DNA of 64,000 nt, taken from NCBI GenBank assembly GCA_963826505.1, contig CAWGXG010000001.1, positions 354,406-418,405 on the forward strand, written 5' to 3'. The stretch is from an uncultured Chloroflexia bacterium (GTDB taxonomy: Bacteria; Chloroflexota; Anaerolineae; Aggregatilineales; Aggregatilineaceae). Positions 2,372 to 42,054 of this stretch are shown piece after piece. The translations under genes and the position numbers were made by a program. Below the pieces are notes generated by a model, which did no database searches, was not told where the DNA came from, and worked only from the letters and a program-made list of their open reading frames with translations. Each line of letters starts with the position of its first letter. The first letter of the stretch is position 1.

Positions 2372-3001
2372 ATGAAAATCGCTATCATCAACGAAACCAG
2401 CGCAGCCGACCGCAACGCCGATATTGTGGCGGCGTTAGAAGGGCGGGGCCACACCATCATCAACGCCGGTATGACGAAGAATTACGCCAAACCCGAGCTG
2501 ACGTATATCAACACCGGACTGCTGTCGGCTCTGCTCTTGAACCTTAAACGGGTCGATTTTGTGGTGGGCGGCTGCGGCACCGGCCAGGGCTATCTGAACT
2601 CGGTGATGCAGTATCCGGGCGTGTTCTGCGGGCACATCATGAATTCGATGGATGCCTGGCTGTTTACCCAGATCAACGGCGGCAACTGCATTTCGCTGAT
2701 GCTCAACCAGGGCTACGGCTGGGCCGCCGACGTCAATCTGCGCTTCATCTTTGATCGCATTTTCAGCGTGGAATCCGGGGCAGGCTACCCGGCCCACCGC
2801 CAGGAGTTGCAGCGCCAATCGCGGCAAACCCTGAGCCAGGTGTCCGCTATGACGCACTGCTCGATGGCGGAGATCGTCGCCACGCTGCCCGATGATATCG
2901 TCCGTCCAACGCTGGAATACCCCGGCGTGTGGGACCTGATCGAGGTCGATTCGGTTGAGGACGCGGCTCTCAAGACTGTTCTCCTCAAACGCATGGCATA
3001 A
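2372..3001 (+). CDS. RpiB/LacA/LacB-family sugar-phosphate isomerase-like protein with ~60-aa C-terminal extension
   Basis: Starts [11 protein letters not shown] and carries [19 protein letters not shown], matching the RpiB CGTGIG/VPG architecture. SD GAGGAAAACC upstream of ATG 2372. Confidence 0.55.
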
Positions 3002-3018: not shown

Positions 3019-4492
3019 ATGACCAATACACTATCCAATTACATTAACGGCACATGGCAAAAATCTGCGGCGGACAATTATCAACCCGTCGTCAACCCGG
3101 CTACCGGCGAAACGATCGCCGAAGTCCCGCTGTCGTCTCCATCCGTAGTCGATCAGGCGGCTGAAGCTGCCGTCGCGGCGGCGGATTCCTGGCGGCGCGT
3201 CCCGCCCGTTGAGCGCGTGCAATACCTGTTCAAGCTCAAAGGGCTGCTCGAAGAGAACATCGACGAGCTGTCGCGCGCGATCACCAACGAGAACGGCAAG
3301 ACGTTCGGCGAGGCCAAAGGCGAGATGCAGCGCGCTATCGAAAACGTGGAAGTCGCGTGCGGTATTCCGACCCTGATGCAGGGCACCATCTCCGAAGACA
3401 TCGCGTCGGGCATTGACGAGCTGATGATCCGCCAGCCGGTCGGCGTGGCGGCCATCATCGCGCCCTTCAATTTTCCCGGGATGATCCCGTTCTGGTTCCT
3501 GCCCTACGCAGTGGCGACCGGCAATACCGTGATCGTAAAACCGTCCGAACGCTGCCCGCTCACGATGCACATCGCGTTCGAGCTGCTGGAAGCGGCGGGC
3601 TTTCCGCCCGGCGTGGTCAACAGCGTCAACGGCGGGACCGGACTGCGTCAACGCGATCCTCGATCATCCGTCCATCAACGCCGTGAGCTTCGTGGGATCA
3701 ACCCCGGTGGCGCGCCACATCTACTCACGCGCCTCGGCCAGCGGCAAGCGCGTCCAGGCGCAGGGTGGGGCGAAGAACCCGATCGTCGTCCTGCCGGACG
3801 CCGATCTCGACATGACGACGCGCATCGTCGCCGACAGCGCCTTTGGCAACGCCGGACAGCGCTGCCTGGCCGCCTCGCTGGCGATCACCGTCGGCAGTGT
3901 GCGCCACGAATTCACGCAAGCTGTAGCCGATGCCGCGTCGCAGCGCGTCGTCGGATATGGGCTGGATGCAGGCGTCACGATGGGGCCGGTGATCACGCCT
4001 CAGAGCAAGGCACGCATCCAGGGTCTCATCCAGACCGGGCTGGACGAAGGGGCCAAAGCCCTGCTTGACGGGCGGGAGGCTACCATCAAGGGCTATGAGA
4101 AGGGTTACTTCATGCGCCCGACCATTCTTGAGGATGTGAAACCGGGCGGCACCATCGCGCGCACGGAGATTTTCGGGCCAGTGTTGGGCATGATGCACGT
4201 CGATACTATCGACGAAGCGATCGCCCTGGTGAATAGCGGTGAGTATGGCAACATGGCCTGCCTGTTCACGAACAGCGGCTCGGCGGCGCGCAAATTCCGT
4301 TACGAAGCCATGGCGGGCAATATCGGCATCAATATTGGCGTGGCGGCCCCGATGGCCTTCTTCCCGTTCAGCGGTTGGAAGTCGAGCTTCTTCGGCGTGC
4401 TGCACGGCCAGAGTCATCACGCGGTCGAGTTCTTCACGCAGACCAAAGTCGTCGTGGAGCGCTGGCCGAAAGAGTGGACGCGGCAGTTTTAG
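3019..4492 (+). pseudogene. mmsA: methylmalonate-semialdehyde dehydrogenase-like (CoA-acylating ALDH, MmsA/IolA-like) with 1-nt insertion near 3640
   Basis: N-terminal 3019..~3640 and C-terminal 3683..4492 are both ALDH. VNGGTG|LRQ reads [26 protein letters not shown] if one g is removed from accggactg. Catalytic Cys is present in AGQRCLA. Confidence 0.75.
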
Positions 4493-4509: not shown

Positions 4510-4543
4510 CTCCGGCTCTCCCGCCAACGCGCGGAGAGCCGGA
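4510..4543 (+). terminator. hairpin after mmsA-like gene (11-bp stem TCCGGCTCTCC/GGAGAGCCGGA), weak U-tract
   Basis: Inverted repeat seen directly in the sequence 17 nt after the stop codon. Followed by GTTAATG, so it is a weak intrinsic terminator at best. Confidence 0.35.
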
Positions 4544-4629
4544 GTTAATGCGCTGCGCCGGGATTCAATTCTGTGATTGCGCATAGTGCAACCATGATTG
4601 CCTATTATCAACAAAATCGGTCCGAGTCG

Positions 4630-4695: not shown

Positions 4696-5442
4696 TTGTC
4701 GGAAATTCAGTCACTAGCGCGTGGACTTCGTATCATGGAGCTGATGGCCGCCAGCGATAACGGCGTCGGTGTCACCGAGCTGGCCAATGATCTGGGAATT
4801 GATAAGAGCAGCGCGTCCCGCCTGGTTCAGACGCTGGTCAATCACGGCTTTGCTGAGCAGGTCACGGTGAGCCGCCGTTACCGTCTCGGCCCGCAGTTGG
4901 TGCGGCTCAGCCGCAGTTTGCTGACGCGCATGCCGCTGCGCGATGAAGCGAAGCCCTTCTTGCGCCAGCTCGTCGATCGTACCGGGGAATGCGCCCATCT
5001 GGCCATTCTGACCCAGGGGCAGGCGCTGTATATCGATCAGGTCGAATCACCGGCCAGCCTGCGCGTGACCACGGGTGTGGGCACGCTGGCTCCCTTGCAT
5101 TGCACGGCGCTGGGCAAATGCCTGCTCGCCTTCAACCCTGACGCGGTGCTGCCGGACGACCTGCCCGCCTTCACGCCGCGCACTATCACCGACCCGGAGA
5201 CGCTGTCCATTCACCTGGAACAGACGCGCCAGCGTGGGTATGCAGTGGACGATGAGGAATACGATTACGGTGTGCGCTGTCTGGCCGCGCCGGTCTATGA
5301 TTTTCGCGGAAAAGTGATCGGAGCAGTGGGGGTGTCTGGTCCAGCGGGCCGCATGGGGCTTGATCGCGTCTCGGAATTCGCGTCGATCGTGATGCAGGCC
5401 AGCCAGGCGTTGTCGGACCGGATGAGCTTTAAGAAAGCCTGA
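4696..5442 (+). CDS. IclR family transcriptional regulator (TTG start with AAAGGA SD; alternative ATG 4657 lies inside the predicted -10)
   Basis: N-terminal HTH (LSEIQSLARGLRIMELMAAS..GVTELANDLGIDKSSASRLVQTL) plus a C-terminal IclR effector domain. Confidence 0.8.
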   Translation: MSEIQSLARGLRIMELMAASDNGVGVTELANDLGIDKSSASRLVQTLVNHGFAEQVTVSRRYRLGPQLVRLSRSLLTRMPLRDEAKPFLRQLVDRTGECAHLAILTQGQALYIDQVESPASLRVTTGVGTLAPLHCTALGKCLLAFNPDAVLPDDLPAFTPRTITDPETLSIHLEQTRQRGYAVDDEEYDYGVRCLAAPVYDFRGKVIGAVGVSGPAGRMGLDRVSEFASIVMQASQALSDRMSFKKA

Positions 5443-5535
5443 GAATCCTACCAGGGCGGTTTCCGCATCCTGGTATTTTAATAGATTGATGTCGCAACAT
5501 AGTTGTATTATACGCAACCTCAGGAGATTATTTAT

Positions 5536-6597
5536 ATGGACGAACTCAGAGTTGGGTTTATTGGCGCGGGTCGCATCTCCGATCTGCACGCGCTGGAATA
5601 CCTGGCCAATGACCGCGCCCGCATCGTCGCCGTGTGTGACGTCGATCCCGAGATCGCCCGGCGGCGCGGGGAAAAATGGGGCGTGGCCGCCGACCACATT
5701 TTCACGGACTATCACGACTTACTCGCCCTGCCCGAAGTCGATCTCGTCGAAATCCTGCTGCCGCACCATCTCCACCATCAAGCCACGCTCGACGCTGCCG
5801 CCGCCGGTAAGCATATCTCACTGCAAAAACCGATGGCGCTCAGCGTGAAAGAGGCCGACGAGATGATCGCCGCCGCCGAAAAGGCCGGGGTGATCTTCAA
5901 GGTCTTCGAGAATTTCATCTTCTACCCGCCCGTCTTGCGCGCCAAAGCCTTGATCGAAGCCGGGGAGATCGGCGATCCGCTCACGATCCGCATCAAGAGC
6001 AATTCCGGCACCAGCCCCAACATGTGGGACGTGCCCAACGCGGCCTGGGCCTGGCGTTTTACCGAGGAGCAGTGCGGCGGGGGGCCGCTGGTCTTCGACG
6101 ATGGGCACCATAAATTCTCGCTGGCGTGGTATTTCATGGGGCTGGCGGAAGAAGTGCACGCCTGGATCGGAGAGACTGAAATTCAGCCCGGTTTCCTGCT
6201 GGATTCGCCCGCGATCGTCTCGTGGAAGTTCCCCAACAACCGCTTCGGCTCGCTGGAAGCGGTTAGCTCGCCCGAGCTGGTGCTGGACACCAATCATTAC
6301 GCCCAGGATGACCGGATCGAAGTCACGGGCACGAAAGGCGTGCTGTGGATCACACGCGGGCACGGCAAGATGATGGATGTCCCGCCGGTGGTCGTCTACC
6401 GCGACCGCAAAGTCTACGCCCATTCGGATATGCCAACCGGTTGGGAACACAGCTTCATCAACTCGACGCGCCATTTCATTGACGCGTATTTCGCGGGCAA
6501 GGCCCCCAGTCTCACCGCGTGGGAAGGCCGCGAGATCCTGCGCTTTGCGCTGGCGGCGCAGGAATCGGCGCGTAGTGGTCTGTCCGTCAAACTATAG
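5536..6597 (+). CDS. Gfo/Idh/MocA family NAD(P)-dependent oxidoreductase
   Basis: Rossmann N-terminus VGFIGAGRISDLHALEY and EKPMALS motif. SD AGGAG 9 nt upstream of ATG. Confidence 0.85.
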   Translation: MDELRVGFIGAGRISDLHALEYLANDRARIVAVCDVDPEIARRRGEKWGVAADHIFTDYHDLLALPEVDLVEILLPHHLHHQATLDAAAAGKHISLQKPMALSVKEADEMIAAAEKAGVIFKVFENFIFYPPVLRAKALIEAGEIGDPLTIRIKSNSGTSPNMWDVPNAAWAWRFTEEQCGGGPLVFDDGHHKFSLAWYFMGLAEEVHAWIGETEIQPGFLLDSPAIVSWKFPNNRFGSLEAVSSPELVLDTNHYAQDDRIEVTGTKGVLWITRGHGKMMDVPPVVVYRDRKVYAHSDMPTGWEHSFINSTRHFIDAYFAGKAPSLTAWEGREILRFALAAQESARSGLSVKL

Positions 6598-6639
6598 CGG
6601 AGCACGGCTTACGGTTCACAGGAAAGAAGGGTGTTTGAA

Positions 6640-8442
6640 ATGAAACTTACCGGCTCCGAAATCGTCACTGAAATGCTGGTGCGCGAAGGAGTCCCTTACG
6701 CGATCGGCATTCCGGGGCATGGCAATCTTGGGCTGATCGATGCGCTGCGGCGCTACCAGGACCGCATCAAAGTGATTATGCCGCGCCACGAACAGGCGGC
6801 CGTCCATATGGCCGATGGGTATTACCGCGTCACAGGCGAGCCGCTGGCCGTCTTCACGTCGATCGGCGCGGGCGCGTCGAATACCGCGATCGGTCTGGCG
6901 ACGGCTTACGTCGATTCGATCCCGCTGCTGCTGTTGATTGGCGAAACGCATACCTACATGCGCGGCGTGGGCGTGCTGCAAGAAATCGAGCGCCAATACT
7001 GGTCCGACATGCCGCGCATGCTCTATCCGACCGTCAAGCGCGCCTGGCACATCGACTCCGCTGTGCAAATTCAGCGCGCGGTTGGGCAGGCGTTCAACGC
7101 CATGCGCACCGGTCGTCCTGGTCCGACGCTGGTCACGCTGCCGATGGATGTCCAGGCGGACGCGGTGGACCTGCCCGAAGCGCCCGAACCACGTACACGC
7201 CGTCCGCACGACCGTCCCGCTGGGGACCCGGCCGCGCTGGCCCAGGCCGCCGACCTGCTGATCCAGGCCAAACGCCCGGTGATCGTCGCCGGGGGCGGGG
7301 TCATTTTATCCGAGGGCTGGGAAGCACTGAAGGCGGTTGCCGAGCACCTGGGGGCGTGCGTCGTCACTACGATGCAGGGCAAGAGCGCCTTCCCCGAGGA
7401 TCATCCGTTGTATGCGTGGCACATGGGCAGCAACGCCACCACCTGCGGTAACTACATGACCGCCCACGCGGATGTGCTGCTGGCCGTGGGCGTGCGTTTT
7501 GCTGACAAGGCCGCGTCGTCCTACAAGCCGGGCGCGTCGTTCAGCATTCCGCCCACCAAACTGATCCACGCCGACATTGATCCCGCCGAAATCGGCAAGA
7601 ATTACCCGGTCGAGGTCGGCATCGTGGGCGATGCCAAAGCGATCCTGGAAGGCTTGCTCGAAGCGCTGCGCGCCCGCACCGCCGCCCGTGACTGGACGGA
7701 CGCGCCCTACACGCGCGAAATCGCTGAGCGGGTAGCCGGGTGGTGGCAGCAGAACCACGAGCTGCGCCATTCCGATCACACGCCGGTCACGATGGGCCGT
7801 GTCATCACCGAGCTGCGCAAAGGGCTGCCGCCGGAAGCGGTCATTTTCACCTCGTCGGGCAACATCCAGGCACAGGTCTTTCAGGAGATGGCGTTCAGCC
7901 AGCCGCGCACCTATGTGTCGGCGGGCGGCTTCAGCACGATGGGCTGGTCCTTCCCGGCGGCGATGGGTGCCAAGCTGGCCCTGCCCGGCGCGCCCGTCCT
8001 GGCGCTGGTAGGCGATGGCGATTTCCTGATGACCATTCAGGAACTGGCGACCGCCGTGCAGTACAACATCCCGGTGATCGTGGTTGTCCTCAATAACGTC
8101 GGCTGGCAGGCCATCCGCGACTTGCAGGTGATCGCCTACGGCGAAGAGTCGGTCTATTCGACCATGTTCGAGGACGGCGACCAGCCGGTCACGCCCGACA
8201 TTACGGCGATCGCGAAGGGGTTCGGCGCGCATGCCGTGCGCATCAACTGCCCGGACGAGGTCGGACCCGCTCTTAAGGAAGCCTTGAGCCTGGGCAAACC
8301 GAGCGTGATCGAGGTCATGGTCGACGACCGGCTCGGCACTTCTGGCGGGTTGGCCCCGGGGTGGTGGGACGTGCCCGTGCCGGAATATATGCAGTTACGG
8401 CGCGCGCAGTACAACCAGGAACGCAGCGACGAACGCATCTAG
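6640..8442 (+). CDS. thiamine-diphosphate-dependent enzyme, acetolactate synthase large-subunit-like (candidates: IolD, Xsc or sugar-specific ThDP lyase)
   Basis: About 600 aa with the three-domain ALS-like layout: N-terminal Pyr domain (GIPGHGNL), central domain, C-terminal PP domain with GDGDF..NN motif. Intact ORF. Confidence 0.8.
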   Translation: MKLTGSEIVTEMLVREGVPYAIGIPGHGNLGLIDALRRYQDRIKVIMPRHEQAAVHMADGYYRVTGEPLAVFTSIGAGASNTAIGLATAYVDSIPLLLLIGETHTYMRGVGVLQEIERQYWSDMPRMLYPTVKRAWHIDSAVQIQRAVGQAFNAMRTGRPGPTLVTLPMDVQADAVDLPEAPEPRTRRPHDRPAGDPAALAQAADLLIQAKRPVIVAGGGVILSEGWEALKAVAEHLGACVVTTMQGKSAFPEDHPLYAWHMGSNATTCGNYMTAHADVLLAVGVRFADKAASSYKPGASFSIPPTKLIHADIDPAEIGKNYPVEVGIVGDAKAILEGLLEALRARTAARDWTDAPYTREIAERVAGWWQQNHELRHSDHTPVTMGRVITELRKGLPPEAVIFTSSGNIQAQVFQEMAFSQPRTYVSAGGFSTMGWSFPAAMGAKLALPGAPVLALVGDGDFLMTIQELATAVQYNIPVIVVVLNNVGWQAIRDLQVIAYGEESVYSTMFEDGDQPVTPDITAIAKGFGAHAVRINCPDEVGPALKEALSLGKPSVIEVMVDDRLGTSGGLAPGWWDVPVPEYMQLRRAQYNQERSDERI

Positions 8443-8487
8443 CCCTCGGATTGGCAGGTTGGCGGGGCATGGTATTGGGAGCCGGAT

Positions 8488-9327
8488 ATGCATCATCACT
8501 CTGAAGCTTTGATTTATGACCTCCAGGAGAAGGCGCGCCAGATCAGGCTCGACGTGCTGGATATGGTCTACCGGCGCGGGGCCGGGCATCCGGGCGGGTC
8601 ATTTTCCTGCGCGGAGATCCTGGCCGCGCTGTACTTCCATCACATGAAGATCGATCCGGAGCGTCCGCGCTGGCCTGAACGCGATCGCTTCTTGCTGAGC
8701 AAAGGGCATGCGGCGGCAGCGCTCTATTCGGTGTTGGCGCGGCGCGGCTTCTTCCCGGTGGAGGATCTGGAACGCTGGGGCCACCTGGGCGCGCATCTCC
8801 AGGGCCACCCCGATCGCATCAAGACGCCGGGCGTGGAGATGTCGTCGGGCTTTTTGGGACACGGGCTGTCGATCGCGGTCGGGCTGACGCTGGCCCAACG
8901 CTTGAAAGGACCGCATTTCCACACCTACGCCCTGATGAGCGACGGCTGCATGCAATCCGGAGTCGCGTGGGAAGGTGCGCTGACCGCCTCGAAGTTCCGC
9001 ACGAGCGAGCTGACCGTCATCATGGATTTCAACGACGTCCAACTTGACGGCGCGGCCCACGACATCATGCCGTTGGAGCCGCTGCTGGACAAGTGGCGCG
9101 CGTTTGGATTCGCTACGCTCGAAATCAACGGGCACAACATGCGCCAGGTGCTCGAGGCGCTCGACACCGCGTTGGAGATTCACAGCCTGCCCACCGTCAT
9201 CGTCGCGCATACGACCAAGGGCAAGGGCGTTTCGTTCATGGAAAACACGGCCAAGTGGCATGGCGCGGTCCCCAATGACACCGAGTACGCGCTGGCCCAG
9301 GCTGAACTGAAAGGATACGAGGCATGA
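8488..9327 (+). CDS. transketolase, N-terminal (PP-domain) subunit of a split transketolase
   Basis: GHPGGSFSCAEILAALY, SKGHAAAALYS and ThDP-binding GDG-like MSDGCMQSG motifs. 279 aa. Confidence 0.9.
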   Translation: MHHHSEALIYDLQEKARQIRLDVLDMVYRRGAGHPGGSFSCAEILAALYFHHMKIDPERPRWPERDRFLLSKGHAAAALYSVLARRGFFPVEDLERWGHLGAHLQGHPDRIKTPGVEMSSGFLGHGLSIAVGLTLAQRLKGPHFHTYALMSDGCMQSGVAWEGALTASKFRTSELTVIMDFNDVQLDGAAHDIMPLEPLLDKWRAFGFATLEINGHNMRQVLEALDTALEIHSLPTVIVAHTTKGKGVSFMENTAKWHGAVPNDTEYALAQAELKGYEA

Positions 9328-10268
9328 GCCAGATTCCGCAGCGACAGGCTTACGGCATGGCCCTGGCCGACTACGGCGACGTGAACTCGGATGTCGTGGT
9401 GCTGGACGCCGACGTATCCTCTTCTACCCTGACGAAGTTTTTCGCCGAGCGATTTCCTGCGCGCTTTTTCAACCTGGGCGTGACCGAAGCGTCGATGGTC
9501 GATGTCGGGGTGGGGTTGGCGCTGGGCGGCGCGATCCCGTTCGTCAACACCTTCGCCGCCCTGCTGACGCTGCGCGCCTGCGAGCAGATTCGCACCTGCG
9601 TGGCCTATGCCCATACCAACGTCAAGCTGGTGGGCGGCTATTCGGGACTGTCGGATTACAAAGACGGTCCGACGCACTTCGCGCTCAACGATGTGGCGCT
9701 CATGCGCGCCATGCCGGGGATGCTGGTCGTCACGCCCGCCGATAACGTCGAAGCGGCCAAAATGGTCGCGGCCATCGCTGAGTATGACGGCCCGGTCTAC
9801 ATGCGCATCAGCCGCGCCGTCGTGCCGGACGTGTTCGACAATTCGCACGTGATCACACTGGGTAAGGGCGTGACAGTGTGCCAGGGCAGTGACGCGACCA
9901 TCATCGGATCGGGCAACATGGTCGGGCGCTGCGTTCAAGCGGCGGATGCTCTGGCCCGCGAAAATATCCACGCCCGCGTGCTGTCGCTGCATACGCTCAA
10001 GCCACTGGATGTCGATCTGATTCGTCAGGCGGCGGAAGAAACCGGCGCGCTGGTCACTGCCGAGGATCACTCGATTATCGGCGGAGTGGGCAGCGCGGTG
10101 GCCGAGGCGCTGGCCGGGCACTGTCCGGCTCCGGTGGAGTTTATCGGACTGAACGACACATTTGCCGAAACCGGTCCCGACACCGAAACGCTGATGGATG
10201 CGTGCGGGCTGTCGGTGGCCGACATCGTCGCGGCGACAAAGCGCGCCATGCAGCGCAAAACGCGCTGA
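9324..10268 (+). CDS. transketolase, C-terminal (Pyr/TKC-domain) subunit
   Basis: 4-bp overlap with the N-terminal subunit gene. Pyr-domain and C-terminal TKC-domain similarity. 314 aa. Confidence 0.9.
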   Translation: MSQIPQRQAYGMALADYGDVNSDVVVLDADVSSSTLTKFFAERFPARFFNLGVTEASMVDVGVGLALGGAIPFVNTFAALLTLRACEQIRTCVAYAHTNVKLVGGYSGLSDYKDGPTHFALNDVALMRAMPGMLVVTPADNVEAAKMVAAIAEYDGPVYMRISRAVVPDVFDNSHVITLGKGVTVCQGSDATIIGSGNMVGRCVQAADALARENIHARVLSLHTLKPLDVDLIRQAAEETGALVTAEDHSIIGGVGSAVAEALAGHCPAPVEFIGLNDTFAETGPDTETLMDACGLSVADIVAATKRAMQRKTR

Positions 10269-10295
10269 CGCGGCGAGAGAGTGGATTGAGAGATA

Positions 10296-12014
10296 ATGGC
10301 ACCGCGTGGTCTGGCTAACCGGCTGACAGAATACGGCGACTCTGAGATGGCGCTGTATTTGCGGCGTTCGTTTGCCCGTTCGATGGGCTTCAGCTGTCAC
10401 GCCCTGGGCAAGCCGGTCGTCGGCATCGTGAATACCTTCAGCGAGCTGAACAACTGTCACCGTGGGCTGCGCGAGTTGGCCGAAGCCGTCAAGCGCGGCG
10501 TGTGGCAGGCCGGGGGTCTGCCGCTGGAATTCCCGGTGATCTCGCTGGGCGAAATGTTTCTCCATCCCACGAGCATGATGTATCGCAATCTGATGGCGAT
10601 GGACGTCGAAGCCATGCTGCGCGCCCAGCCGTTGGACGCGGTGGTGCTGTTGGGCGGCTGCGATAAGACGCTGCCCGCTCTGCTGATGGGAGCCGCCAGC
10701 GCGGGACTGCCCGCGATCGTGGTCGCCGCCGGGCCGATGCTGCCCGGCGATTACCAGGGGGAACGCGTCGGCGCGTGCACGGACTGTCGCCGTTTCTGGG
10801 CGCAGTACCGCCAGGGCACGATGGATGCCAGCACCATTCACCAGGTCGAGGGCGAGCTAGTCCCCACGGCTGGGACATGCGGTGTGATGGGCACGGCCAG
10901 CACCATGGCGTGCCTGGTCGAAGCCCTGGGCATGATGCTGCCCGGCGGGGCGAGTGTGCCCGCCGTTTACGCGGGCCGCCTGCGACACGGCGAGCTGAGC
11001 GGCTACCGGGCGGTCGAATTGGCGCACGAAAATCTGACGCCGGACCAGATCATGACGCCCGCCGCCTTCGATAATGCGCTGGTGGTCTTGCAGGCCATCG
11101 GCGGCTCGACCAACGCCATCATCCACCTGACGGCCCTGGCGGGGCGTCTCGGCCAGCGGCTCGACCTGGGGCGGCTGGATGCTTTCAGTGAGACGGTGCC
11201 GCTGCTGGTCGATCTCAAACCGTCCGGCCAGCATTACATGGCCGATTTCCACCGCGCGGGCGGAATGCCGGTCGTGCTGCAGGAACTCAAGCCGCACCTC
11301 CAGCCCGACGTCTGCACCGTGTCTGGCCTGATGCTCGGCGAAGTGATGGATCCGGCATACCAATACCCGGATTGGCAGGATGTGATCCGGCCCGCCGCGA
11401 ATCCGTTCCAACCGCGCGGCTCGCTGGTGGTGCTCAAGGGCAGCCTGTGCCCGGATGGGGCCGTGCTCAAACGCTCGGCGGCCAGCCCGGACCTGCTCAA
11501 AACGACCGGGCGGGCGGTAGTCTTCACCTCGCTGCAGGATCTCGCGGATCGCATCGACGCGCCCGATCTCGACGTGACTCCGCAGGATATTCTCGTCCTG
11601 CAAAACGCGGGGCCAATCGGCGCACCGGGCATGCCGGAAGCGGGCTGCCTGCCGATCCCCAAGAAACTGGCGGGCGTGCGCGACATGGTCCGCATTTCGG
11701 ACGCGCGTATGAGCGGCACGGCGTTTGGCACGGTGGTGCTGCATGTATCGCCCGAGGCCGCCGTCCAGGGACCATTGGGATTGGTGCGCGATGGCGATTC
11801 GATCACGCTGGATGTAGAACACCGCTCGCTCGATCTGCTGGTGACGGAGAGCGAGCTAGCGAGGCGGCGGGCAGATCATTCGCCCAGCCCTGCGCGGTTC
11901 ACGCGGGGTTATGAGCGGCTGTACGTCCAACACGTGCAGCAAGCCCATCTGGGCGCGGATTTTGACTTTTTGCAGCACGACGCGCTGTTGGCCAGCGCGG
12001 ACGAGGCACCTTGA
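10296..12014 (+). CDS. IlvD/EDD-family dehydratase (sugar-acid or dihydroxy-acid dehydratase type)
   Basis: 572 aa with CDKTLP, cluster-ligating Cys pattern and the TCGVMGTASTM region, typical of arabonate/xylonate/6-phosphogluconate dehydratases. Confidence 0.85.
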   Translation: MAPRGLANRLTEYGDSEMALYLRRSFARSMGFSCHALGKPVVGIVNTFSELNNCHRGLRELAEAVKRGVWQAGGLPLEFPVISLGEMFLHPTSMMYRNLMAMDVEAMLRAQPLDAVVLLGGCDKTLPALLMGAASAGLPAIVVAAGPMLPGDYQGERVGACTDCRRFWAQYRQGTMDASTIHQVEGELVPTAGTCGVMGTASTMACLVEALGMMLPGGASVPAVYAGRLRHGELSGYRAVELAHENLTPDQIMTPAAFDNALVVLQAIGGSTNAIIHLTALAGRLGQRLDLGRLDAFSETVPLLVDLKPSGQHYMADFHRAGGMPVVLQELKPHLQPDVCTVSGLMLGEVMDPAYQYPDWQDVIRPAANPFQPRGSLVVLKGSLCPDGAVLKRSAASPDLLKTTGRAVVFTSLQDLADRIDAPDLDVTPQDILVLQNAGPIGAPGMPEAGCLPIPKKLAGVRDMVRISDARMSGTAFGTVVLHVSPEAAVQGPLGLVRDGDSITLDVEHRSLDLLVTESELARRRADHSPSPARFTRGYERLYVQHVQQAHLGADFDFLQHDALLASADEAP

Positions 12015-12291
12015 AAACAGTCTGAACGCGGCACGGGCTGATGCCTGTATAACGCGCTTAGTGACGTCGCAGCACGCGCATAGTCGATGATCGGATTGGC
12101 TGGTGTTTCTCTGGCAGGCTGCCCGGCAACGGGTGACCGGCCCTGGTAGAAGGAGGTGGCATTAGCGACAGCCGGTAGCAGGCTCTAGTCGTGCGAGGAC
12201 CGTACACCGGCAGCCCAAAAGGTGTTACAAACCCGTTCAGGCAGGTAGAGCTACCCAAACGAATGATAAGTTCCAGGAGAGAAAAAACATA

Positions 12292-13551
12292 ATGTCCAAG
12301 AAACGCCTCATTCATTTAGTGATTTTGACCGCGATCTTGTTGTCGTTCAATGCTATGGCCGTCAGCGCGCAGAGCGGGATCAGCATCGTACACTACTTCA
12401 GCGATGCTCTCGGCCAGCAGACTATGGGCGAAATCCTCGATGGTTTCAACGCCGCCAATCCGGATTATAAAGTCGAGGACAACTCCGCCGGGCACGAGGA
12501 CTTCAAGACGCAAATCCTGGTGACGATTGCCGGTGATAATCCTCCGGACATCTTCTCCTACTGGGCCGGTGCCCGCACGCAGTTCATCGTGGATGCTGAT
12601 CGCCTGATGCCGCTGGATGATTTCTGGGCCGCGAACAATCTGGACGACTTCATTCCGGCTGGCGTCAAGTCTGCCGCCGTCTACAACGACCATATCTACA
12701 ACATCCCGATGAACGTCCACATCATCGGCTTCTTCTATAACCCCAAAGTCATGGAAGCGGCTGGAATCATGGCCATGCCCACCACCTGGGACGACTTCAT
12801 CGCCATGTGCGAAACCCTGAAGGCGTCCGGCGTGACCCCGATCGCGCTCGGCTCGAGCAATCGCTGGCCCGCGCAATACTGGTTTGACTACACCATCTCG
12901 CGCACCGCTGGCCCCGAATATCGCCAGAAACTGATGGCCGGTGAAGCCAAATACACCGATCCCGAAGTTGAGACCGCGATGGGCTACTGGAAACAACTGA
13001 CGGACGCCGGGTACTTTGTCCCGGATGCCAATGCCTATGACTGGGACGTGGCCGCCAACATGGTCGCGAACGGCGATGCCGCTATGACCCTGATGGGCAC
13101 CTGGATCACCGGTCTGTGGAACGGCAACGGCCTGGAGCCGATCACCGATTACGACTTCTTCCCGTTCCCGGTCATCAACCCTGATGTGCCGATGGTCGCG
13201 CATGGCTCGATCGACGGCTGGGTTGTCCCGCAGAGCGCCAAGAATCCTGCGGGCGCGGAAGCCCTGTTGAACTGGTTCCTCAGCCCTGAGATTCAGCAGA
13301 AGTGGGCGTTGGGCCAGGGTGCACTCGCGGCCTCGACCGCCATCGACACGTCGGCTTACTCGCCGGTGATGGCGAAGGCAGCGCAGCACCTGTCTGAGGT
13401 CGAGTTCCTGAGCGGCTATGATCTTTCGACCACGCCGCCCATGGCCGAAGGTGGCCTGGACATGTTCGCCATGTTCATGAACGATCCTTCTGGCTTCAAG
13501 GATTACCTGCAGGAAACGCAGGCGATTGCTGACGACGTGTTCGGAAGCTAA
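12292..13551 (+). CDS. ABC transporter substrate-binding protein (family-1 sugar SBP), secreted
   Basis: Signal peptide MSKKRLIHLVILTAILLSFNAMAVSAQS and strong SD AGGAGAGAAAAAAC. 419 aa. Confidence 0.85.
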   Translation: MSKKRLIHLVILTAILLSFNAMAVSAQSGISIVHYFSDALGQQTMGEILDGFNAANPDYKVEDNSAGHEDFKTQILVTIAGDNPPDIFSYWAGARTQFIVDADRLMPLDDFWAANNLDDFIPAGVKSAAVYNDHIYNIPMNVHIIGFFYNPKVMEAAGIMAMPTTWDDFIAMCETLKASGVTPIALGSSNRWPAQYWFDYTISRTAGPEYRQKLMAGEAKYTDPEVETAMGYWKQLTDAGYFVPDANAYDWDVAANMVANGDAAMTLMGTWITGLWNGNGLEPITDYDFFPFPVINPDVPMVAHGSIDGWVVPQSAKNPAGAEALLNWFLSPEIQQKWALGQGALAASTAIDTSAYSPVMAKAAQHLSEVEFLSGYDLSTTPPMAEGGLDMFAMFMNDPSGFKDYLQETQAIADDVFGS

Positions 13552-13574
13552 CGTTTGATCGTATACTGAGCGTA

Positions 13575-13610
13575 CCTGGGGCAGGGCTTGTCCTGCCCCA
13601 GGTACTTTTG
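13575..13610 (+). terminator. intra-operon hairpin/attenuator after SBP gene (12-bp perfect stem ACCTGGGGCAGG/CCTGCCCCAGGT + ACTTTT)
   Basis: Seen directly in the sequence. Attenuators after SBP genes commonly elevate SBP transcript relative to the permease genes. Confidence 0.45.
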
Positions 13611-13664
13611 AGTTATGCCGTTAACACGCTCTGGACCTCTCTGGGCGGCTGGGAGACATAATAG

Positions 13665-14546
13665 GTGACCCGAGAACGACGGATGTGGGCTTTTCTATTC
13701 CTGGTAGTGCCGGTCAGTATCTATCTGATCGTGGTGATCTACCCGCTGCTGTCCTCGTTTTACTTCAGCTTCACCGATTGGAATGGATTTAGCGCACATT
13801 ACAAATTTGTAGGTTTAGATAACTTTAAGCGGATGAAGACTGATCGCTTGTTTCGCAACGCCATCGAAAATACGGTTGTGTGGACGATCGCCGCGGTGGT
13901 TCTGCCGACGGTGGGTGGGCTGCTGCTCGCGCTGGCACTCCACGAACGGGGCATTTTGTCCCGACTATACAAGTCGCTGTTTTACCTCCCGATCTGCCTG
14001 TCGCTGGTGGTGATCGGCCAGGTGTGGATTTGGATTTACCAACCCGGGTTCGGGCTGTTGAACGTCTTTCTGGATAACGCCGGGTTGAGCAGTCTGTCGC
14101 GCGCCTGGTTGGCCAAACCCGATACCGCCCTGGGGTCGGTCATCGCGGCCTGGACATGGCAGCAAATCGCGCTGGCGATGGTCATCTTTCTGGCCGGGCT
14201 CACGGCTGTGCCCAAGGAACTGACCGAGGCCGCCGAGATTGACGGGGCGGGATATTGGCGGACGGTCCGTCACATCGTGATTCCGCTGCTGCGCCCGGCG
14301 TCGATCGTCGTGATCGCGCTGGCGGTGATTAACTCGCTCAAAAGCTTCGACATTCTTTACATGATGACCAAAGGTGGCCCGTTCCACTCGTCCGACAATC
14401 TGGCCATGATGATGTACAACGAATCATTTCAGAAATACCGCATGGGCTACGGCAGCGCGGTCGCGGTGGTGCTGTTCATAATCACGCTGGTGGTCATCAC
14501 GTTCTATTTCCGTCAACAACGTGGGCTGGAGCAACTCTATGACTGA
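13665..14546 (+). CDS. ABC sugar transporter permease (MalF/UgpA-like)
   Basis: Six TM helices and EAA-like loop AAEIDGAGYWRT. GTG start. Confidence 0.8.
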   Translation: MTRERRMWAFLFLVVPVSIYLIVVIYPLLSSFYFSFTDWNGFSAHYKFVGLDNFKRMKTDRLFRNAIENTVVWTIAAVVLPTVGGLLLALALHERGILSRLYKSLFYLPICLSLVVIGQVWIWIYQPGFGLLNVFLDNAGLSSLSRAWLAKPDTALGSVIAAWTWQQIALAMVIFLAGLTAVPKELTEAAEIDGAGYWRTVRHIVIPLLRPASIVVIALAVINSLKSFDILYMMTKGGPFHSSDNLAMMMYNESFQKYRMGYGSAVAVVLFIITLVVITFYFRQQRGLEQLYD

Positions 14547-15426
14547 AGCAACACGCGCCGCAGCGCTGCACGCGCCTTCGAACGCGGCTCGCGTACCGGC
14601 TTCGCGTCGGATACGTACGGTGGTCTTGTATGTCTTGCTCACGCTGCTGTTGGTGATCTATTCACTGCCCAGCCTGGGCGTTGTACTGACGTCACTGAAA
14701 TCCAACGCGGAGATCGCACGCGAGGGCGTGTGGAATCTGCCGGACAACGTGAGTTTCCAGAACTTCCACGATGCCTGGGTAGAAGGCAAGGCAGGGAAGT
14801 ACATCGTCAACTCGCTCAAGGTCACGATCCCGGCCACGCTCGTGTCGATCATGCTCGGCATTCTGACCGGCTATACCCTGGCCAAGCTGGCCTTTCGCGG
14901 CAGCGAGTACCTGTTTATTTTCCTGGTGGCCGGGCTGTTCATCCCGCCGCAAGTCGTGATGATCCCGCTGTTCCGCCTGTTCAACAGTTGGGGGCTGTAC
15001 GACACGCTGTGGCCGATGATTATCGTGCATATTGGGTTCGGAATCCCGATCTGCACGCTGGTGATGAAGAACTTTTTCGCCACGATCCCGACCGCGATCC
15101 GCGAGGCGGCCATCATCGACGGCGCGAACGAGCTGATGGTCCTGGTGCGGGTGATGGTCCCGCTGTCCCTGCCGTCGATGGCGGTCCTGGCGACGCTTCA
15201 GTTCACGTGGATTTGGAACGATTTCCTGTGGCCGGTCATCTTCACCCGCTCGGACTCGGCGCGGACGATCATGTTCGGGCTGGCGTCATTGCGCGGGCAG
15301 TACAGCGTGGCTTATGGCACGCAGTCGGCGATGGCGGTGTTTGCCAGCATCCCGACGCTGCTCATTTTCATCTTCTTCCAGAAGTATTTCATCCGCGGCC
15401 TGACGCTTGGCTCGGTGAAGGGCTAA
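14539..15426 (+). CDS. ABC sugar transporter permease (MalG/UgpE-like)
   Basis: 8-bp overlap with the preceding permease gene. EAA loop AAIIDGANELMVLVRVMVP. Confidence 0.8.
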   Translation: MTEATRAAALHAPSNAARVPASRRIRTVVLYVLLTLLLVIYSLPSLGVVLTSLKSNAEIAREGVWNLPDNVSFQNFHDAWVEGKAGKYIVNSLKVTIPATLVSIMLGILTGYTLAKLAFRGSEYLFIFLVAGLFIPPQVVMIPLFRLFNSWGLYDTLWPMIIVHIGFGIPICTLVMKNFFATIPTAIREAAIIDGANELMVLVRVMVPLSLPSMAVLATLQFTWIWNDFLWPVIFTRSDSARTIMFGLASLRGQYSVAYGTQSAMAVFASIPTLLIFIFFQKYFIRGLTLGSVKG

Positions 15427-15431: not shown

Positions 15432-15848
15432 TCAGGTCAGGAACAGGCGCAGATCGCCGTCGCTATCCTCTTCGACGCGCAGGGCGGGCAGTGCTTGCTT
15501 GGCGGGGCCGTGTAGGAGGTTGCCGGACGAGTCGTAGCGCGAGCCGTGACACGGGCAGACGAACCCGCTGCCCTTCTGTTCGACGGTGCAGCCCAGGTGG
15601 GTACACACCAAACTCACTGCGGAAAAACCGTCTTCGTCGTGGATCAGCACGGCTGGGACGTCCGGCAGCAGCGTATGCGTCCCGAGCGGGTACTCCTGGG
15701 CAGCACCCAGGTCGATATCGGTTGGGGCGCTCAATTCCGCCTGAAACCCCAGGAAGCGGACCAATCCATCCAGGCTGAGCAGACCGCTCACCGCTAGCAG
15801 GGCGGTGGTGGTCATCTTCAAAACATCACGGCGGCGATATTCAGACAT
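15432..15848 (-). CDS. Rieske [2Fe-2S] protein with Tat signal (subunit of a cytochrome bc-type complex)
   Basis: RRRDVL twin-arginine motif. Rieske boxes CTHLGC and CPCHGS. Confidence 0.85.
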   Translation of the reverse strand: MSEYRRRDVLKMTTTALLAVSGLLSLDGLVRFLGFQAELSAPTDIDLGAAQEYPLGTHTLLPDVPAVLIHDEDGFSAVSLVCTHLGCTVEQKGSGFVCPCHGSRYDSSGNLLHGPAKQALPALRVEEDSDGDLRLFLT

Positions 15849-15901
15849 AAGCGCTCACATCATCCTTCGAACTGTCCCAAGTTAACGATTTCCATCAACT
15901 C

Positions 15902-17149
15902 CTAGCGTTCCACGGCATGGCATGCATGGCAATACTGCGAATTCTGCTGCTGCGGGTCCTGCTGGCATTGCGTACCCATCACCGGGCGGAAGGTGAACGT
16001 CTGACCGGTGGCTTTGCCGGTGAGCGTGTAGGTGCCGTCCGGCAGAACGCGCGTGTTCCACAGCGGCTCGCCCTGCTCGGTGGCGAGGATCACGTCGCCG
16101 ACCTGGAGCTCCACGACTGGGTTGAGAAAGGCCAGCTTGACGGCGAGCTCGTCCTCGCTGGCGATGGTGTAGGTTTGCGGCAGCTCGGTCAGCGTGCCGT
16201 GACACGTTTTGCACTGCACATATTGGATGTCGCCCATGCTGGAATGAATATCGCCGTCGCCCATGACCTCGACGCGCGTGTGGCAGTCGATGCAGTCCAG
16301 CGTCCATTCGCAGCGGGTGAACTGGGCGATCGGCTGGTAATAGTCGTGCAAGCGATCGGTGGGCGTGTCGCTGCGTGGCTCAAAGGTCATCGAGCGCAAA
16401 TCATAGTTGCCCCGGTTGTGGCACGTGTTGCACTGTGTGTACGGAATGGCGGTCGTCAGGTGGTGGATCTGACCTTCGGGCGCGCTGGTGATGTCGGGCG
16501 TGTGGCAAGCCGCGCAGCCGGTCAGACGCGCGAACGCGTCGCCATCCGGAGGTTCAGCGCCGATGTGGCAGGTGAGGCAGTTTTCGCCAAACAGGTGGAC
16601 CGATGGGTTGGACATTTGTGAGACATCAAGCGCGGCGAGTGCGGCGACACCGGTGCTCGTCGTGACGTCATCATCGGCCACAGCGTAAACGCCGAATTGG
16701 GCGGTCAGGCTGGGCTGCGCGCCGAACGTGTACAGTATATTTGCGATCGCCCCGGCGTAAGTCGCCTGGACGCTGGTCGTCACGCGCTGGATGTGATCCT
16801 GATACTCCTGTGGGCTGCCGCTGTGACAGTTGCCGCCGCCACAGGATTGTTCGACCACGGTCAGATCGGAGGGATTCGCGCCGCCGCGCAGGGTGCTGTG
16901 CGCCAGATCGGCGTTGAGCGCCAGCCGTTCGCCGCCGTGACACACCACGCAGCCAAAGGTCTCGACCGGATGCGCGGCGCTGATTTCGGGTAGATCGCCG
17001 TGACAGGTGAGGCAGTATTCGGCTTCGCCGGTCAGCGTGGGAGTCAGCGCCACCGGCCGGGTGCGCCGCGCCTCGACCCACCAGGCCAGTAGCAAGGCTC
17101 CCAACAGCAGGGCGGCAGCGAGTACGATCGAGCGGCGCGGCGTCATCAT
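15902..17149 (-). CDS. membrane-anchored multiheme c-type cytochrome (nine heme-binding motifs incl. one CX4CH)
   Basis: Eight CXXCH motifs plus CGGGNCH. N-terminal signal anchor MMTPRRSIVLAAALLLGALLLAWW. The ATGA start overlaps the cytochrome b stop. Confidence 0.8.
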   Translation of the reverse strand: MMTPRRSIVLAAALLLGALLLAWWVEARRTRPVALTPTLTGEAEYCLTCHGDLPEISAAHPVETFGCVVCHGGERLALNADLAHSTLRGGANPSDLTVVEQSCGGGNCHSGSPQEYQDHIQRVTTSVQATYAGAIANILYTFGAQPSLTAQFGVYAVADDDVTTSTGVAALAALDVSQMSNPSVHLFGENCLTCHIGAEPPDGDAFARLTGCAACHTPDITSAPEGQIHHLTTAIPYTQCNTCHNRGNYDLRSMTFEPRSDTPTDRLHDYYQPIAQFTRCEWTLDCIDCHTRVEVMGDGDIHSSMGDIQYVQCKTCHGTLTELPQTYTIASEDELAVKLAFLNPVVELQVGDVILATEQGEPLWNTRVLPDGTYTLTGKATGQTFTFRPVMGTQCQQDPQQQNSQYCHACHAVER

Positions 17150-18183
17150 GCTCCACCTGACAGCCAGGCGAGCAGCGTCAAGGCCAGCACCAGCACGCCG
17201 ATCGCGGACAGAATCAACTGCGCCAACCGGTTTGACTTGGGAAACCAGCGCCCCAGCTCGCGTTCGTCGGGCGGGGGGAGCAGGTAAGGAATAGCCGCCA
17301 GCACGGCCAGCACGGCCAGCGGAGCCAGCACGCCCCACACGAACGGATCGCCCCAGGTGAGCATGCGCTGCACCCACAGAAAAAACCACGGGGCGCGCAC
17401 GTCGCCGGAAACGGCGGAAAGCTCCGTGATCGGCGCGGCAATTGGGGCGGGGGCGAAGCTGGCCGTGAGAATCAGCGCGGCGCTGGTCATCAACATGGCG
17501 AATGCTTCGCGGCGCACCAGCTCGACGCGCGTGATCCGCGCGCGATCGGAGCGCAGCGCCGGGGGCGGCACGGCGATTCCGCCGTCACGCCGCACGCGGA
17601 ACAGGTGCCAGCCCATGATCAGCACGGCGATTAGCATCAGGCCGAAGATGTGCCAGGCGTAGAAGCGGGTCAACGTGGCAGGGCCGGGCCGCGATCCGCC
17701 CACGACAATGGCATGCAGGCTGTCGCCGATAGCGGGAATGGTCTTGAGCAGATTGGTGCCGACCACCAGCGCCCACTGAATACCCTGGTCCCAACGCAGA
17801 ACGTAACCGGTGAAATTCAGCAGAACGGCCAGCACGAACAGCGCCAGTCCTAACAGCGCGTTGAAGCGGCGCGGCGGACCGTACGCGCCGGTGAACACGA
17901 CCCGCACCAGATGAACCGCCATCACGATCATCAGGAATTGGGCCGCCCAGTAGTGCAGGTTGCGCACCAGTCCGCCCAGGGCCACGTGATAGGTGATGGT
18001 CTGGATCGAGAGCGCGGCCTGATCGGGCGTGGGCGTGTAATAGAACATCTCCAGCGCGCCCGTGACGATCAGCACCAGCACCAGAAAGACGGCGATCCCG
18101 CCCGCGCCCAGAGTGTAACGCCACCGCGCTTGTTGGGCTGGGAGAGTGGGTGGGTGCAGGTGATAGAAGAAGTTTGGGCGCAT
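17146..18183 (-). CDS. cytochrome b (b6 + subunit IV fused type) of a Rieske/cyt b complex
   Basis: Four conserved heme-ligand His in helices B and D (HYWAAQF..AVHLVRV; FYAWHIFG..GWHLF). 345 aa polytopic membrane protein. Confidence 0.8.
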   Translation of the reverse strand: MRPNFFYHLHPPTLPAQQARWRYTLGAGGIAVFLVLVLIVTGALEMFYYTPTPDQAALSIQTITYHVALGGLVRNLHYWAAQFLMIVMAVHLVRVVFTGAYGPPRRFNALLGLALFVLAVLLNFTGYVLRWDQGIQWALVVGTNLLKTIPAIGDSLHAIVVGGSRPGPATLTRFYAWHIFGLMLIAVLIMGWHLFRVRRDGGIAVPPPALRSDRARITRVELVRREAFAMLMTSAALILTASFAPAPIAAPITELSAVSGDVRAPWFFLWVQRMLTWGDPFVWGVLAPLAVLAVLAAIPYLLPPPDERELGRWFPKSNRLAQLILSAIGVLVLALTLLAWLSGGA

Positions 18184-18260
18184 GGTGACCGCGTATGGTG
18201 AACGGGGTGGTGAAGACCCCCGTCCCGTTGGAACGAGGGTCTTTTCAGGTAGTGGGTGGA

Positions 18261-20263: not shown

Positions 20264-20267
20264 GATG

Positions 20268-22439: not shown

Positions 22440-22492
22440 GTTGAACTCCGGTCCTCAAAGGTTAGTGTTGCCCAAACTCCGCACCTGACAGG

Positions 22493-23041: not shown

Positions 23042-23043
23042 GC

Positions 23044-23589: not shown

Positions 23590-23593
23590 GGCG

Positions 23594-39756: not shown

Positions 39757-42054
<2,298 letters not shown>

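Follow-up and report, generated by a model that had tools for sequence, protein, structure and literature searches.

A 64,000-nucleotide stretch of the genome of an uncultured Chloroflexia bacterium (contig CAWGXG010000001.1, positions 354,406 to 418,405; hereafter the window) contains a nine-gene operon at 4696-15426, all on the + strand, encoding an IclR-family regulator, a Gfo/Idh/MocA oxidoreductase, a thiamine diphosphate (ThDP) enzyme resembling acetolactate synthase (ALS), a split transketolase (TK), an IlvD/EDD-family dehydratase and three components of a sugar ABC importer. Judged by sequence, the cluster specifies an uncharacterized pathway, a variant of known logic that is not a sulfo-transketolase (sulfo-TK), apiose, iol or ilv system, and the ALS-like protein represents a new ThDP enzyme family, distinct from biosynthetic ALS and common in uncultured Chloroflexota, gut Firmicutes and some archaea. 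In related loci the Gfo and ThDP genes form a common trunk accompanied by one of two enzyme modules, and the explanation that we tentatively favor is an IclR-controlled, kinase-free catabolic system in which the trunk would deliver a C5 aldehydo-acid to either module A or module B.

Window proteins were assigned to families by Pfam and NCBIfam scans using the NCBIfam curated cutoffs, and the domain families of all nine genes are those named in an earlier note on this DNA. Related loci were taken as the best 80 of 258 relatives of the ThDP enzyme, with one genome per species scanned and loci counted at the species level; synteny among them was compared by tblastn, and neighboring families were defined by all-against-all clustering of 994 nearby open reading frames (ORFs). 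Nearly all of these 80 relatives are from metagenome-assembled genomes (MAGs), representing Anaerolineae and other Chloroflexota, Christensenellaceae/Clostridia, Trueperaceae, Armatimonadota, Poribacteria, Bathyarchaeia and one Asgard archaeon. Searched as DNA against a plasmid collection, the complete operon had no meaningful counterpart, and no published description of this gene combination was found in the literature. The operon, its candidate operator and the adjacent LacI operon are organized as follows:

1283-2333, + strand: LacI-family regulator of the isomerase and aldehyde dehydrogenase (ALDH) operon (Pfam LacI and Peripla_BP)
2372-3001, + strand: DhuI-like aldose-ketose isomerase with an RpiB/LacAB fold, 209 aa (PRK09273)
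3019-4492, + strand: CoA-acylating (methyl)malonate-semialdehyde dehydrogenase (MMSDH) of the IolA/MmsA type, in two ORFs (Aldedh)
4696-5442, + strand: IclR-family regulator (Pfam HTH_IclR and IclR_C)
5494-5518, unstranded: candidate IclR operator immediately 5' of the Gfo ribosome-binding site, GCAAC-N3-GTTG with an additional, third GCAAC half-site
5536-6597, + strand: Gfo/Idh/MocA NAD(P) oxidoreductase, the first trunk enzyme (Pfam)
6640-8442, + strand: ALS-like ThDP enzyme, 600 aa, the second trunk enzyme (three TPP_enzyme domains)
8488-9327, + strand: split transketolase, N-terminal (PP) subunit, TK-N (Transketolase_N)
9324-10268, + strand: split transketolase, C-terminal (Pyr + C) subunit, TK-C (Transket_pyr and Transketolase_C)
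10296-12014, + strand: IlvD/EDD-family sugar-acid dehydratase (PRK06131)
12292-13551, + strand: CUT1 solute-binding protein, SBP (Pfam SBP_bac_1)
13665-14546, + strand: ABC permease 1 (BPD_transp_1)
14521-15426, + strand: ABC permease 2 (BPD_transp_1)

No enzyme of the nine-gene set reaches an NCBIfam equivalog cutoff, the dehydratase alone passing a cutoff at the subfamily level. The ThDP enzyme scores 424.7 against the ALS large-subunit model TIGR00118 (cutoff 538.35) and below half of the cutoff of each remaining ALS model, although ALS large-subunit models are nonetheless its top-scoring ones in NCBIfam; scores against the models for sulfoacetaldehyde acetyltransferase (Xsc; TIGR03457, 312.8 against 676.4, and PRK07525, 333.6 against 620), IolD (TIGR04377, 325.6 against 715) and Gcl (324 against 791) also fall short, and IolD is the sole model that aligns through the C-terminal tail, to residue 597. 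It is 27-32% identical to every solved relative (HKA synthase, Gcl, AHAS, Cdh and HACL) by both sequence and fold, and a fold search of the PDB added nothing to the sequence search. More than 100 unnamed homologues share 66-89% identity with it, and identities are 43-89% inside the family as against 37% or less to annotated ALS and Gcl proteins; the catalytic Glu51 and the GDG...NN ThDP motif are invariant. The gene is flanked by those for Gfo and TK-N, and neither a small regulatory subunit (IlvN) nor an ilvC or other ilv context lies beside it or recurs in the 80 loci, in agreement with the earlier note's view that this is not a biosynthetic ALS. The Gfo protein finds its best NCBIfam model in IolG (TIGR04380), at 129.7 against a cutoff of 355, and many of its family relatives are sugar 3-dehydrogenases such as DgpA and levoglucosan dehydrogenase. 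An identity of Gfo with the NAD-dependent sulfoquinovosidase SqgA was rejected, the PDB entries of SqgA being absent from the Gfo sequence matches, and PDB 8RPH is the carboligase JanthE.

The adjacent Gfo and ThDP genes are the conserved core of the related loci, usually together with iclR, the candidate operator and a sugar transporter, and the pairing is found in most of the 80 loci, spanning Chloroflexota, Bacillota, Deinococcota and archaea. The transporter varies by locus among CUT1, CUT2 and MFS_2 types. Two sets of enzymes accompany this trunk: module A (24 loci) consists of TK-N and TK-C plus the DhuI-like isomerase, with or without MMSDH, and module B (16 loci) of an ALDH closest to succinate-semialdehyde dehydrogenases (ALDH') plus an IlvD-type dehydratase. 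Succinate-semialdehyde dehydrogenases act on aldehydo-acids. Transketolase and ALDH' never occur in the same locus, MMSDH is linked only to transketolase and isomerase, and about 20 of the transketolase-type loci have no dehydratase. The simplest versions are a self-contained Christensenellaceae operon with genes for TK-N, TK-C, MMSDH, ThDP enzyme, isomerase, IclR, Gfo and MFS_2 and nothing else related (L075), and a divergon with SBP and permease genes on one side and those for IclR, Gfo, ThDP enzyme, ALDH' and IlvD on the other, and no more than these (L085). An aldehyde:ferredoxin oxidoreductase (AOR) stands in place of ALDH' in one locus (L087), which points to an aldehyde-to-acid step before the dehydratase. 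In the tree of ThDP enzymes the Chloroflexota transketolase-type loci are nested among those of the ALDH' and IlvD type.

In the window module A is divided, its isomerase and MMSDH genes lying in the neighboring LacI operon, and the IlvD dehydratase is present as well; only two other loci (L005 and L009) share this combination of transketolase and IlvD. In L005 the synteny is near-identical, with 81-88% protein identity over seven genes; the arrangement recurs in other MAGs and is no chance juxtaposition. These relatives mark the host of the window as a bacterium of Anaerolineae type. Clustering of the neighboring ORFs shows that the recurrent families are ThDP enzyme, Gfo, IclR, the two ALDH types, CUT1 components, IlvD, TK-N and TK-C, isomerase and LacI, together with the MFS_2 transporter, the CUT2 ATPase and a set of SDR, BKACE and M24 proteins; no kinase, aldolase, lactonase, IolE or IolB, SqvD, lyase or KDG (2-keto-3-deoxygluconate) enzyme recurs. 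The earlier note had described an unusual enzyme set outside the canonical routes, and the set indeed fits no canonical route, although it is better seen as a Gfo and ThDP trunk with interchangeable modules than as one fixed operon; the IlvD protein counted in it is present, but belongs to the module that normally replaces transketolase. Its further suggestion that the isomerase and ALDH of the LacI operon feed the same pathway is borne out by about 20 other loci, including Firmicutes, where both lie in one operon with Gfo, ThDP and transketolase genes, and the transketolase pair is cluster-specific.

A common regulatory signal accompanies both module types. The candidate operator occupies the same position, just upstream of the Gfo ribosome-binding site, in at least 20 loci of both kinds, and there is a single exact site in the window; its palindrome with a third direct half-site recalls the three-repeat operators of PcaU/PobR-type IclR regulators. 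The iclR gene is present in 42 of the 80 loci. Its product reaches no NCBIfam equivalog cutoff, and a role as a repressor is assumed from where the operator lies. One SBP orthogroup (72-80% identity) is likewise linked to both modules. The mutual exclusion of transketolase and ALDH', the common operator and the common SBP orthogroups suggest that the two modules are alternative ways of processing a single trunk product and answer to a single regulator. A second copy of the operator was seen upstream of iclR in some loci (the operator was compared in L005-L037), and an operator-like sequence upstream of iclR in the window (4578-4592) is not significant, with 5 matches against 2.6 expected.

The isomerase passes PRK09273 (196, cutoff 137), matches Streptococcus agalactiae gbs1892 (4u8e) over its full length (residues 1-181, E=6e-43), which we take to be DhuI, and shares its locus with transketolase in at least 15 cases; neither a DhuD/KduD reductase nor KdgK or KdgA was found linked to it in the window or the 80 loci. 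MMSDH in the window is interrupted by one frameshift near 3640, the two ORFs matching Aldedh profile positions 1-193 and 209-461, and its C-terminal part is 78-82% identical to the L006 and L015 orthologues. Intact orthologues from L006 and L075 pass TIGR01722 (545 and 568, cutoff 448.5), and the orthologues align with Bacillus subtilis MSDH (1T90) at 482 bits and keep two Arg residues, one of them just before the catalytic Cys, that bind the carboxylate of the substrate in the B. subtilis enzyme. The transketolase subunits match generic TK models only in NCBIfam (TK-N scoring 262 against NF004559), and TK-C aligns with the split transketolase of C. hydrogenoformans (6yaj) at 272 bits. The dehydratase passes the PRK06131 subfamily cutoff (815.6 against 539) and misses those for ilvD (TIGR00110, 445 against 618), L-arabinonate dehydratase (708 against 882) and Edd (197 against 708); its nearest structures are a sugar-acid DHAD (8ej0, 572 bits) and an L-arabinonate dehydratase (5j84, 531 bits), and it is 71% identical to the module-B dehydratase. 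DhuI is an RpiB/LacAB-family protein that substitutes for the non-homologous KduI, KduI and IolB being of one family, and the part of its substrate on which it acts is the OHC-CHOH-CHOH-CH2- head of 4-deoxy-5-hexosulose uronate (DHU/DEH) (PMC12838403).

Several specific identities raised in the earlier note found no support. For membership of the sulfo-TK, apiose/apulose, Xsc, IolD or sulfogluconate (sulfo-Entner-Doudoroff) systems every curated cutoff is missed, and the partner genes that would define them (SqvD, apulose kinase, pta, IolE, IolB, IolC, IolJ, aldolase and lactonase) are absent from the window and the 80 loci.

Closure of module A by a malonate-semialdehyde dehydrogenase implies that the transketolase donor would be 3,5-dihydroxy-4-oxopentanoate and the trunk product 3,4-dihydroxy-5-oxopentanoate (OHC-CHOH-CHOH-CH2-COO-). 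In module A the isomerase would convert this C5 aldehydo-acid to the ketose, transketolase would move the C2 ketol to glyceraldehyde-3-P to give xylulose-5-P and malonate semialdehyde, and MMSDH would turn the latter into acetyl-CoA and CO2; the C3 configuration of the ketose, as derived on paper, would match transketolase donor specificity. In module B, ALDH' would oxidize the aldehyde to 2,3-dihydroxyglutarate and the dehydratase would yield 2-oxoglutarate, with no further enzyme needed. Since no aldolase, kinase or other family recurs, each module must reach central metabolism alone, and the C5 acid would allow both to do so. This convergence of two independent modules on one intermediate is the main support for the model. 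In the sulfo-TK pathway the same three enzyme families act on the sulfonate analogue (PMC9594981; PMC12890257).

The most speculative step is the substrate. DHU/DEH released as a monomer by lyases from pectin, alginate or glycosaminoglycans might be imported, or a uronate might be taken up and turned into DHU/DEH; decarboxylation of its 2-keto-acid end by the ThDP enzyme would then be followed by Gfo oxidation of the resulting lactol to a carboxylate. DHU/DEH is a 2-keto-3-deoxy acid, and its decarboxylation and oxidation would be the simplest and most conventional origin of the C5 intermediate. That the window IlvD might additionally dehydrate a saturated uronate to DHU is pure speculation. 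We regard as possible, though rather doubtful, the particular novelties that the cluster may hold: action of the ThDP enzyme and Gfo on 4-deoxy-5-hexosulose uronates, or opening of a keto-cyclitol without IolE; a 'carboxy-transketolase' that releases malonate semialdehyde; and a route free of kinases and aldolases.

A number of points weigh against the C5 aldehydo-acid pathway. The intermediate was deduced purely from gene co-occurrence; the nearest solved relatives of the SBP bind neutral mono- or oligosaccharides (e.g. AcbH, ~125 bits) rather than uronates; and none of the loci has a linked gene for a polysaccharide lyase, unsaturated glucuronyl hydrolase, KdgF or KduD. IolG is the best model for Gfo and IolD alone aligns through the ThDP enzyme's tail, and ThDP homologues of 43-47% identity lie beside IolM in haloarchaea and beside IolE-like or inositol-monophosphatase-like genes in rhizobia. 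The window has IlvD and no linked ALDH', the accessory BKACE, SDR and M24 genes are left unexplained, and we know of no precedent for a transketolase acting on a carboxylated ketose.

Those more distant ThDP homologues (43-47% identity) are on plasmids of cultured organisms (Ensifer, Rhizobium, Priestia, Arthrobacter, Haloterrigena and Haladaptatus; L088-L094) and have different contexts, and these organisms offer tractable hosts for work on the ThDP family. In bacteria the partner is a HisD-like dehydrogenase, joined by GMC oxidoreductases, ThuA, VOC or an aspartase-like lyase, and the homologues of R. etli and Ensifer adjoin the inositol-monophosphatase-like and IolE-like genes; in haloarchaea the partner is a true IolM scyllo-inosose 3-dehydrogenase (555, cutoff 450). 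In a sister clade (L041, L045-L048 and L061; 55-57% identity) a housekeeping-type ilvD equivalog precedes the ThDP gene, its stop codon overlapping the ThDP start, and there is no Gfo gene nearby (e.g. L047 8349-11803). An accessory module composed of an M24/creatinase-like hydrolase, a second Gfo, BKACE and a 3-hydroxybutyrate-dehydrogenase-like SDR accompanies both cluster types, with an additional FAA hydrolase in the Asgard locus, at the following positions:

L003, 14958-18813: accessory module
L021, 3094-6916: accessory module
L071, 4386-8160: accessory module
L079, 779-2496: accessory module

The main rival, which we consider unlikely, is a variant pathway for cyclitols (myo- or scyllo-inositol), in which Gfo would serve as IolG and the ThDP enzyme would open the inosose ring, doing the work of IolE and IolD, to give 5-deoxyglucuronate. 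In module A the isomerase would then stand in for IolB, transketolase for IolC and IolJ, and MMSDH would be IolA; in module B the 5-deoxyglucuronate would be oxidized and then dehydrated. The likeness of Gfo to IolG over its full length and of the ThDP enzyme to IolD as far as residue 597, and the placement of MMSDH in the IolA family, all suit this scheme, as do the haloarchaeal and rhizobial neighbors just described, the SBP's resemblance to monosaccharide binders and the CUT2 systems of some loci. The shared family of KduI and IolB, with DhuI as a non-homologous substitute for the former, also fits (PMC12838403). However, every Iol model score is far under its cutoff, IolE is found in none of the 80 loci, and transketolase acting on 2-deoxy-5-keto-gluconate would give a C4 aldehydo-acid rather than malonate semialdehyde, leaving the transketolase-linked MMSDH unexplained. 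Module B would end at 4-hydroxy-2-oxoadipate and require an aldolase, which occurs in none of its 16 loci. IclR effectors are usually carboxylates, another point on which a cyclitol fits poorly.

Improbable in our estimate is an oxidative sugar route with the dehydratase ahead of the ThDP enzyme: Gfo would convert an aldose to an aldonate, IlvD would form the 2-keto-3-deoxy acid, the ThDP enzyme a 2-deoxy-aldehyde and ALDH a 2-deoxy-aldonate, with SDR and BKACE finishing as in deoxyribonate catabolism, a route through these two enzymes that Price et al. reportedly described in 2019. ALS-like enzymes are typically 2-keto-acid decarboxylases, the sister-clade dehydratase gene overlaps the ThDP gene start, and some module-B operons are extended by the SDR, BKACE, M24 and second Gfo genes. 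Against this, that dehydratase differs from the window's in being a housekeeping-type ilvD equivalog, the BKACE module also accompanies the transketolase type (L021), and minimal module-B loci without SDR and BKACE would reach a dead end at the 2-deoxy-aldonate. The scheme also fails to account for the dehydratase-free transketolase loci or to give any role to isomerase, transketolase and MMSDH.

It is very unlikely that the ThDP enzyme cleaves a 3-keto sugar made by Gfo into malonate semialdehyde and glyceraldehyde (or glycolaldehyde), to be consumed by MMSDH and, via glycerate to pyruvate, by ALDH' and IlvD. The sugar 3-dehydrogenases among the Gfo relatives and the GMC oxidoreductases linked to rhizobial homologues lend it some color, and conversion of glyceraldehyde through glycerate to pyruvate suits ALDH' or AOR with IlvD, but malonate semialdehyde would then be expected in every carrier, yet MMSDH accompanies only the transketolase module and never module B, and isomerase and transketolase would have no sensible substrate. 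Such cleavage was among the alternatives rejected by carbon counting or co-occurrence, the others being passage of the C6 5-deoxyglucuronate through transketolase, decarboxylation of 5-keto-4-deoxyglucarate, and a route from pentose through pentonate to 3,4-dihydroxybutanal.

MFS_2 and CUT1 importers are used for sulfoquinovose in other organisms, and genes for sulfur transporters and a molybdenum oxidoreductase lie downstream in the window. Split transketolase, PF02502 isomerase and acylating ALDH are moreover the families of the lower sulfo-TK pathway (PMC9594981). Even so, there is only a slim chance that the cluster is a sulfonate pathway, whether for sulfoquinovose or a C4 sulfonate, with a desulfonating Xsc-like ThDP enzyme and IlvD as a sulfogluconate dehydratase. 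Scores against the Xsc models are about half of the cutoffs (313-334 against 620-676), module B would stop at 2-oxo-4-sulfobutanoate, which is not a metabolite, and SqvD/YihS, sulfoquinovosidase, pta, SqwF, SqwKL and a sulfite or sulfonate exporter are absent from the operon and not recurrent in the 80 loci; the downstream sulfur genes are part of a divergent respiratory unit, which is separate from the cluster and is not kept alongside it in related loci. Scarcely credible is a chance grouping of housekeeping ALS, dihydroxy-acid dehydratase and transketolase beside a sugar transporter, as hinted by the top-ranking ALS models and the IlvD-family gene, given that all ALS and ilvD equivalog cutoffs are missed, IlvN and IlvC are absent, Gfo-ThDP synteny under the IclR operator is kept across phyla, and the family is set apart from annotated ALS and Gcl by the identity gap noted above.

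Gene starts in the operon follow those of the orthologues: an in-frame TTG at 4696 gives an IclR of 248 aa, the length of its orthologues, the ATG at 5536 a Gfo of 353 aa, and the start at 6640 a ThDP enzyme of the same 600 aa as in all homologues, while the TK-C start overlaps the TK-N stop. No ABC ATPase gene lies 3' of the permeases, the next genes being respiratory and on the - strand. The first of the following elements forms the boundary between the LacI operon and iclR:

4510-4544, + strand: perfect hairpin (inverted repeat, 12-bp stem, 100% complementary) 3' of the ALDH stop codon
4630-4658, + strand: sigma-70-like promoter of iclR, TTGACT-17-TATAAT, with 11 of 12 consensus matches
13572-13605, + strand: hairpin with a 15-bp stem and T-run between the SBP and permease genes, an attenuator or terminator

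Four or more genes of the window are each split by a single frameshift, and the nine focal genes are intact. They include those for LacI (near 1330, an indel leaving the N-terminal helix-turn-helix in a different frame), MMSDH (~3640), an ABC ATPase (175-1092, - strand) and COX1 (~28560). These are likely assembly indels and not pseudogenes, and the break in MMSDH is probably an assembly error since the same kind of break affects at least three other window genes.

Downstream of the operon on the - strand (15432-24487) is a respiratory module with a Rieske-like ORF, a multiheme cytochrome c (495 aa), cytochrome b, NrfD, a 4Fe-4S protein, a TAT-exported molybdopterin oxidoreductase (723 aa) and two half-size YeeE/YedE-type sulfur-transporter genes. 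This unit is unrelated to the sugar cluster, and related loci do not conserve it there. A second sugar-uptake cluster at 36692-47281 (- strand) encodes a weakly GH9-like protein, a 765-aa FAD_oxidored protein, a URO-D-like protein and a CUT1 SBP with permeases. A search of 36-52 kb for further uronate or inositol genes of the window met only this unrelated cluster.

If the proposed pathway is correct, it would provide DHU/DEH, the universal product of lyases, with a fourth fate, or else define a new cyclitol route, would assign a role to the hundreds of unnamed proteins of the ThDP family that are now automatically annotated as 'acetolactate synthase', and would extend transketolase chemistry from phosphate and sulfonate to carboxylate substrates. 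Uronate polymers would be converted to xylulose-5-P and acetyl-CoA, or to 2-oxoglutarate, by a system widespread in uncultured Anaerolineae, gut Christensenellaceae/Clostridia and some archaea, improving metabolic reconstruction of the Anaerolineae that dominate digesters and activated sludge and of the gut Christensenellaceae. Whatever its substrate, the trunk with its alternative modules and conserved IclR operator lends itself to direct testing, with six soluble enzymes and a single binding protein.

The cluster shares features with several known systems and departs from each. As in the apiose/apulose-4-phosphate transketolase pathway (AptAB), a split transketolase is encoded together with an ABC importer in an operon for sugar catabolism, but the cluster is kinase-free, and apulose kinase and apiose isomerase occur in none of the 80 loci. 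The DHU/DEH metabolism that proceeds via KduI/DhuI and KduD/DhuD to KDG, and then through KdgK and KdgA, shares the proposed substrate and an isomerase related to DhuI over its full length; here, however, there is no reductase, KDG kinase or aldolase, and the proposed ThDP decarboxylation would shorten the skeleton instead of reducing it to KDG. The non-phosphorylative oxidative routes for pentoses and uronates (Weimberg-type), which use IlvD/EDD-family pentonate dehydratases, end in 2-oxoglutarate, the product predicted for module B. The cluster similarly combines an IlvD/EDD sugar-acid dehydratase, close to L-arabinonate dehydratase, with an ALDH step and no kinases, but in module B the ALDH precedes a single dehydratase, entry is through the ThDP enzyme, and the L-arabinonate dehydratase cutoff is not reached.

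The cluster and the myo-inositol iol pathway both include a dehydrogenase of the Gfo family, an ALS-like ThDP enzyme that ends in an IolD-like C-terminal tail, an aldose-ketose isomerase for an aldehydo-acid and, as the last enzyme, an IolA-type MMSDH. In contrast, the window operon and the recurrent families of the 80 loci lack IolE, IolB, IolC and IolJ, the IolG and IolD models are matched at about a third to a half of their cutoffs, transketolase or ALDH plus dehydratase takes the place of kinase plus aldolase, and a C6 cyclitol passing through transketolase would yield no malonate semialdehyde. The lower part of the sulfo-TK pathway (SqwI, SqwGH and SqwD) resembles the cluster at the level of families, with an RpiB/LacAB isomerase, a split transketolase and a CoA-acylating ALDH in the same inferred order (PMC9594981), and in both a short anionic aldose would become a ketose and then a C2-shortened aldehyde. 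The cluster has no SQ (sulfoquinovose) isomerase (SqvD, PF02952), sulfoquinovosidase, SqwF or SqwKL, or exporter, and is fed by a Gfo and ThDP trunk that has no counterpart in sulfo-TK. Module A may thus be read as a carboxylate analogue of the lower sulfo-TK pathway: unlike that of sulfo-TK, its terminal ALDH is in the malonate-semialdehyde dehydrogenase family, and the anionic group is therefore most likely a carboxylate and not a sulfonate.

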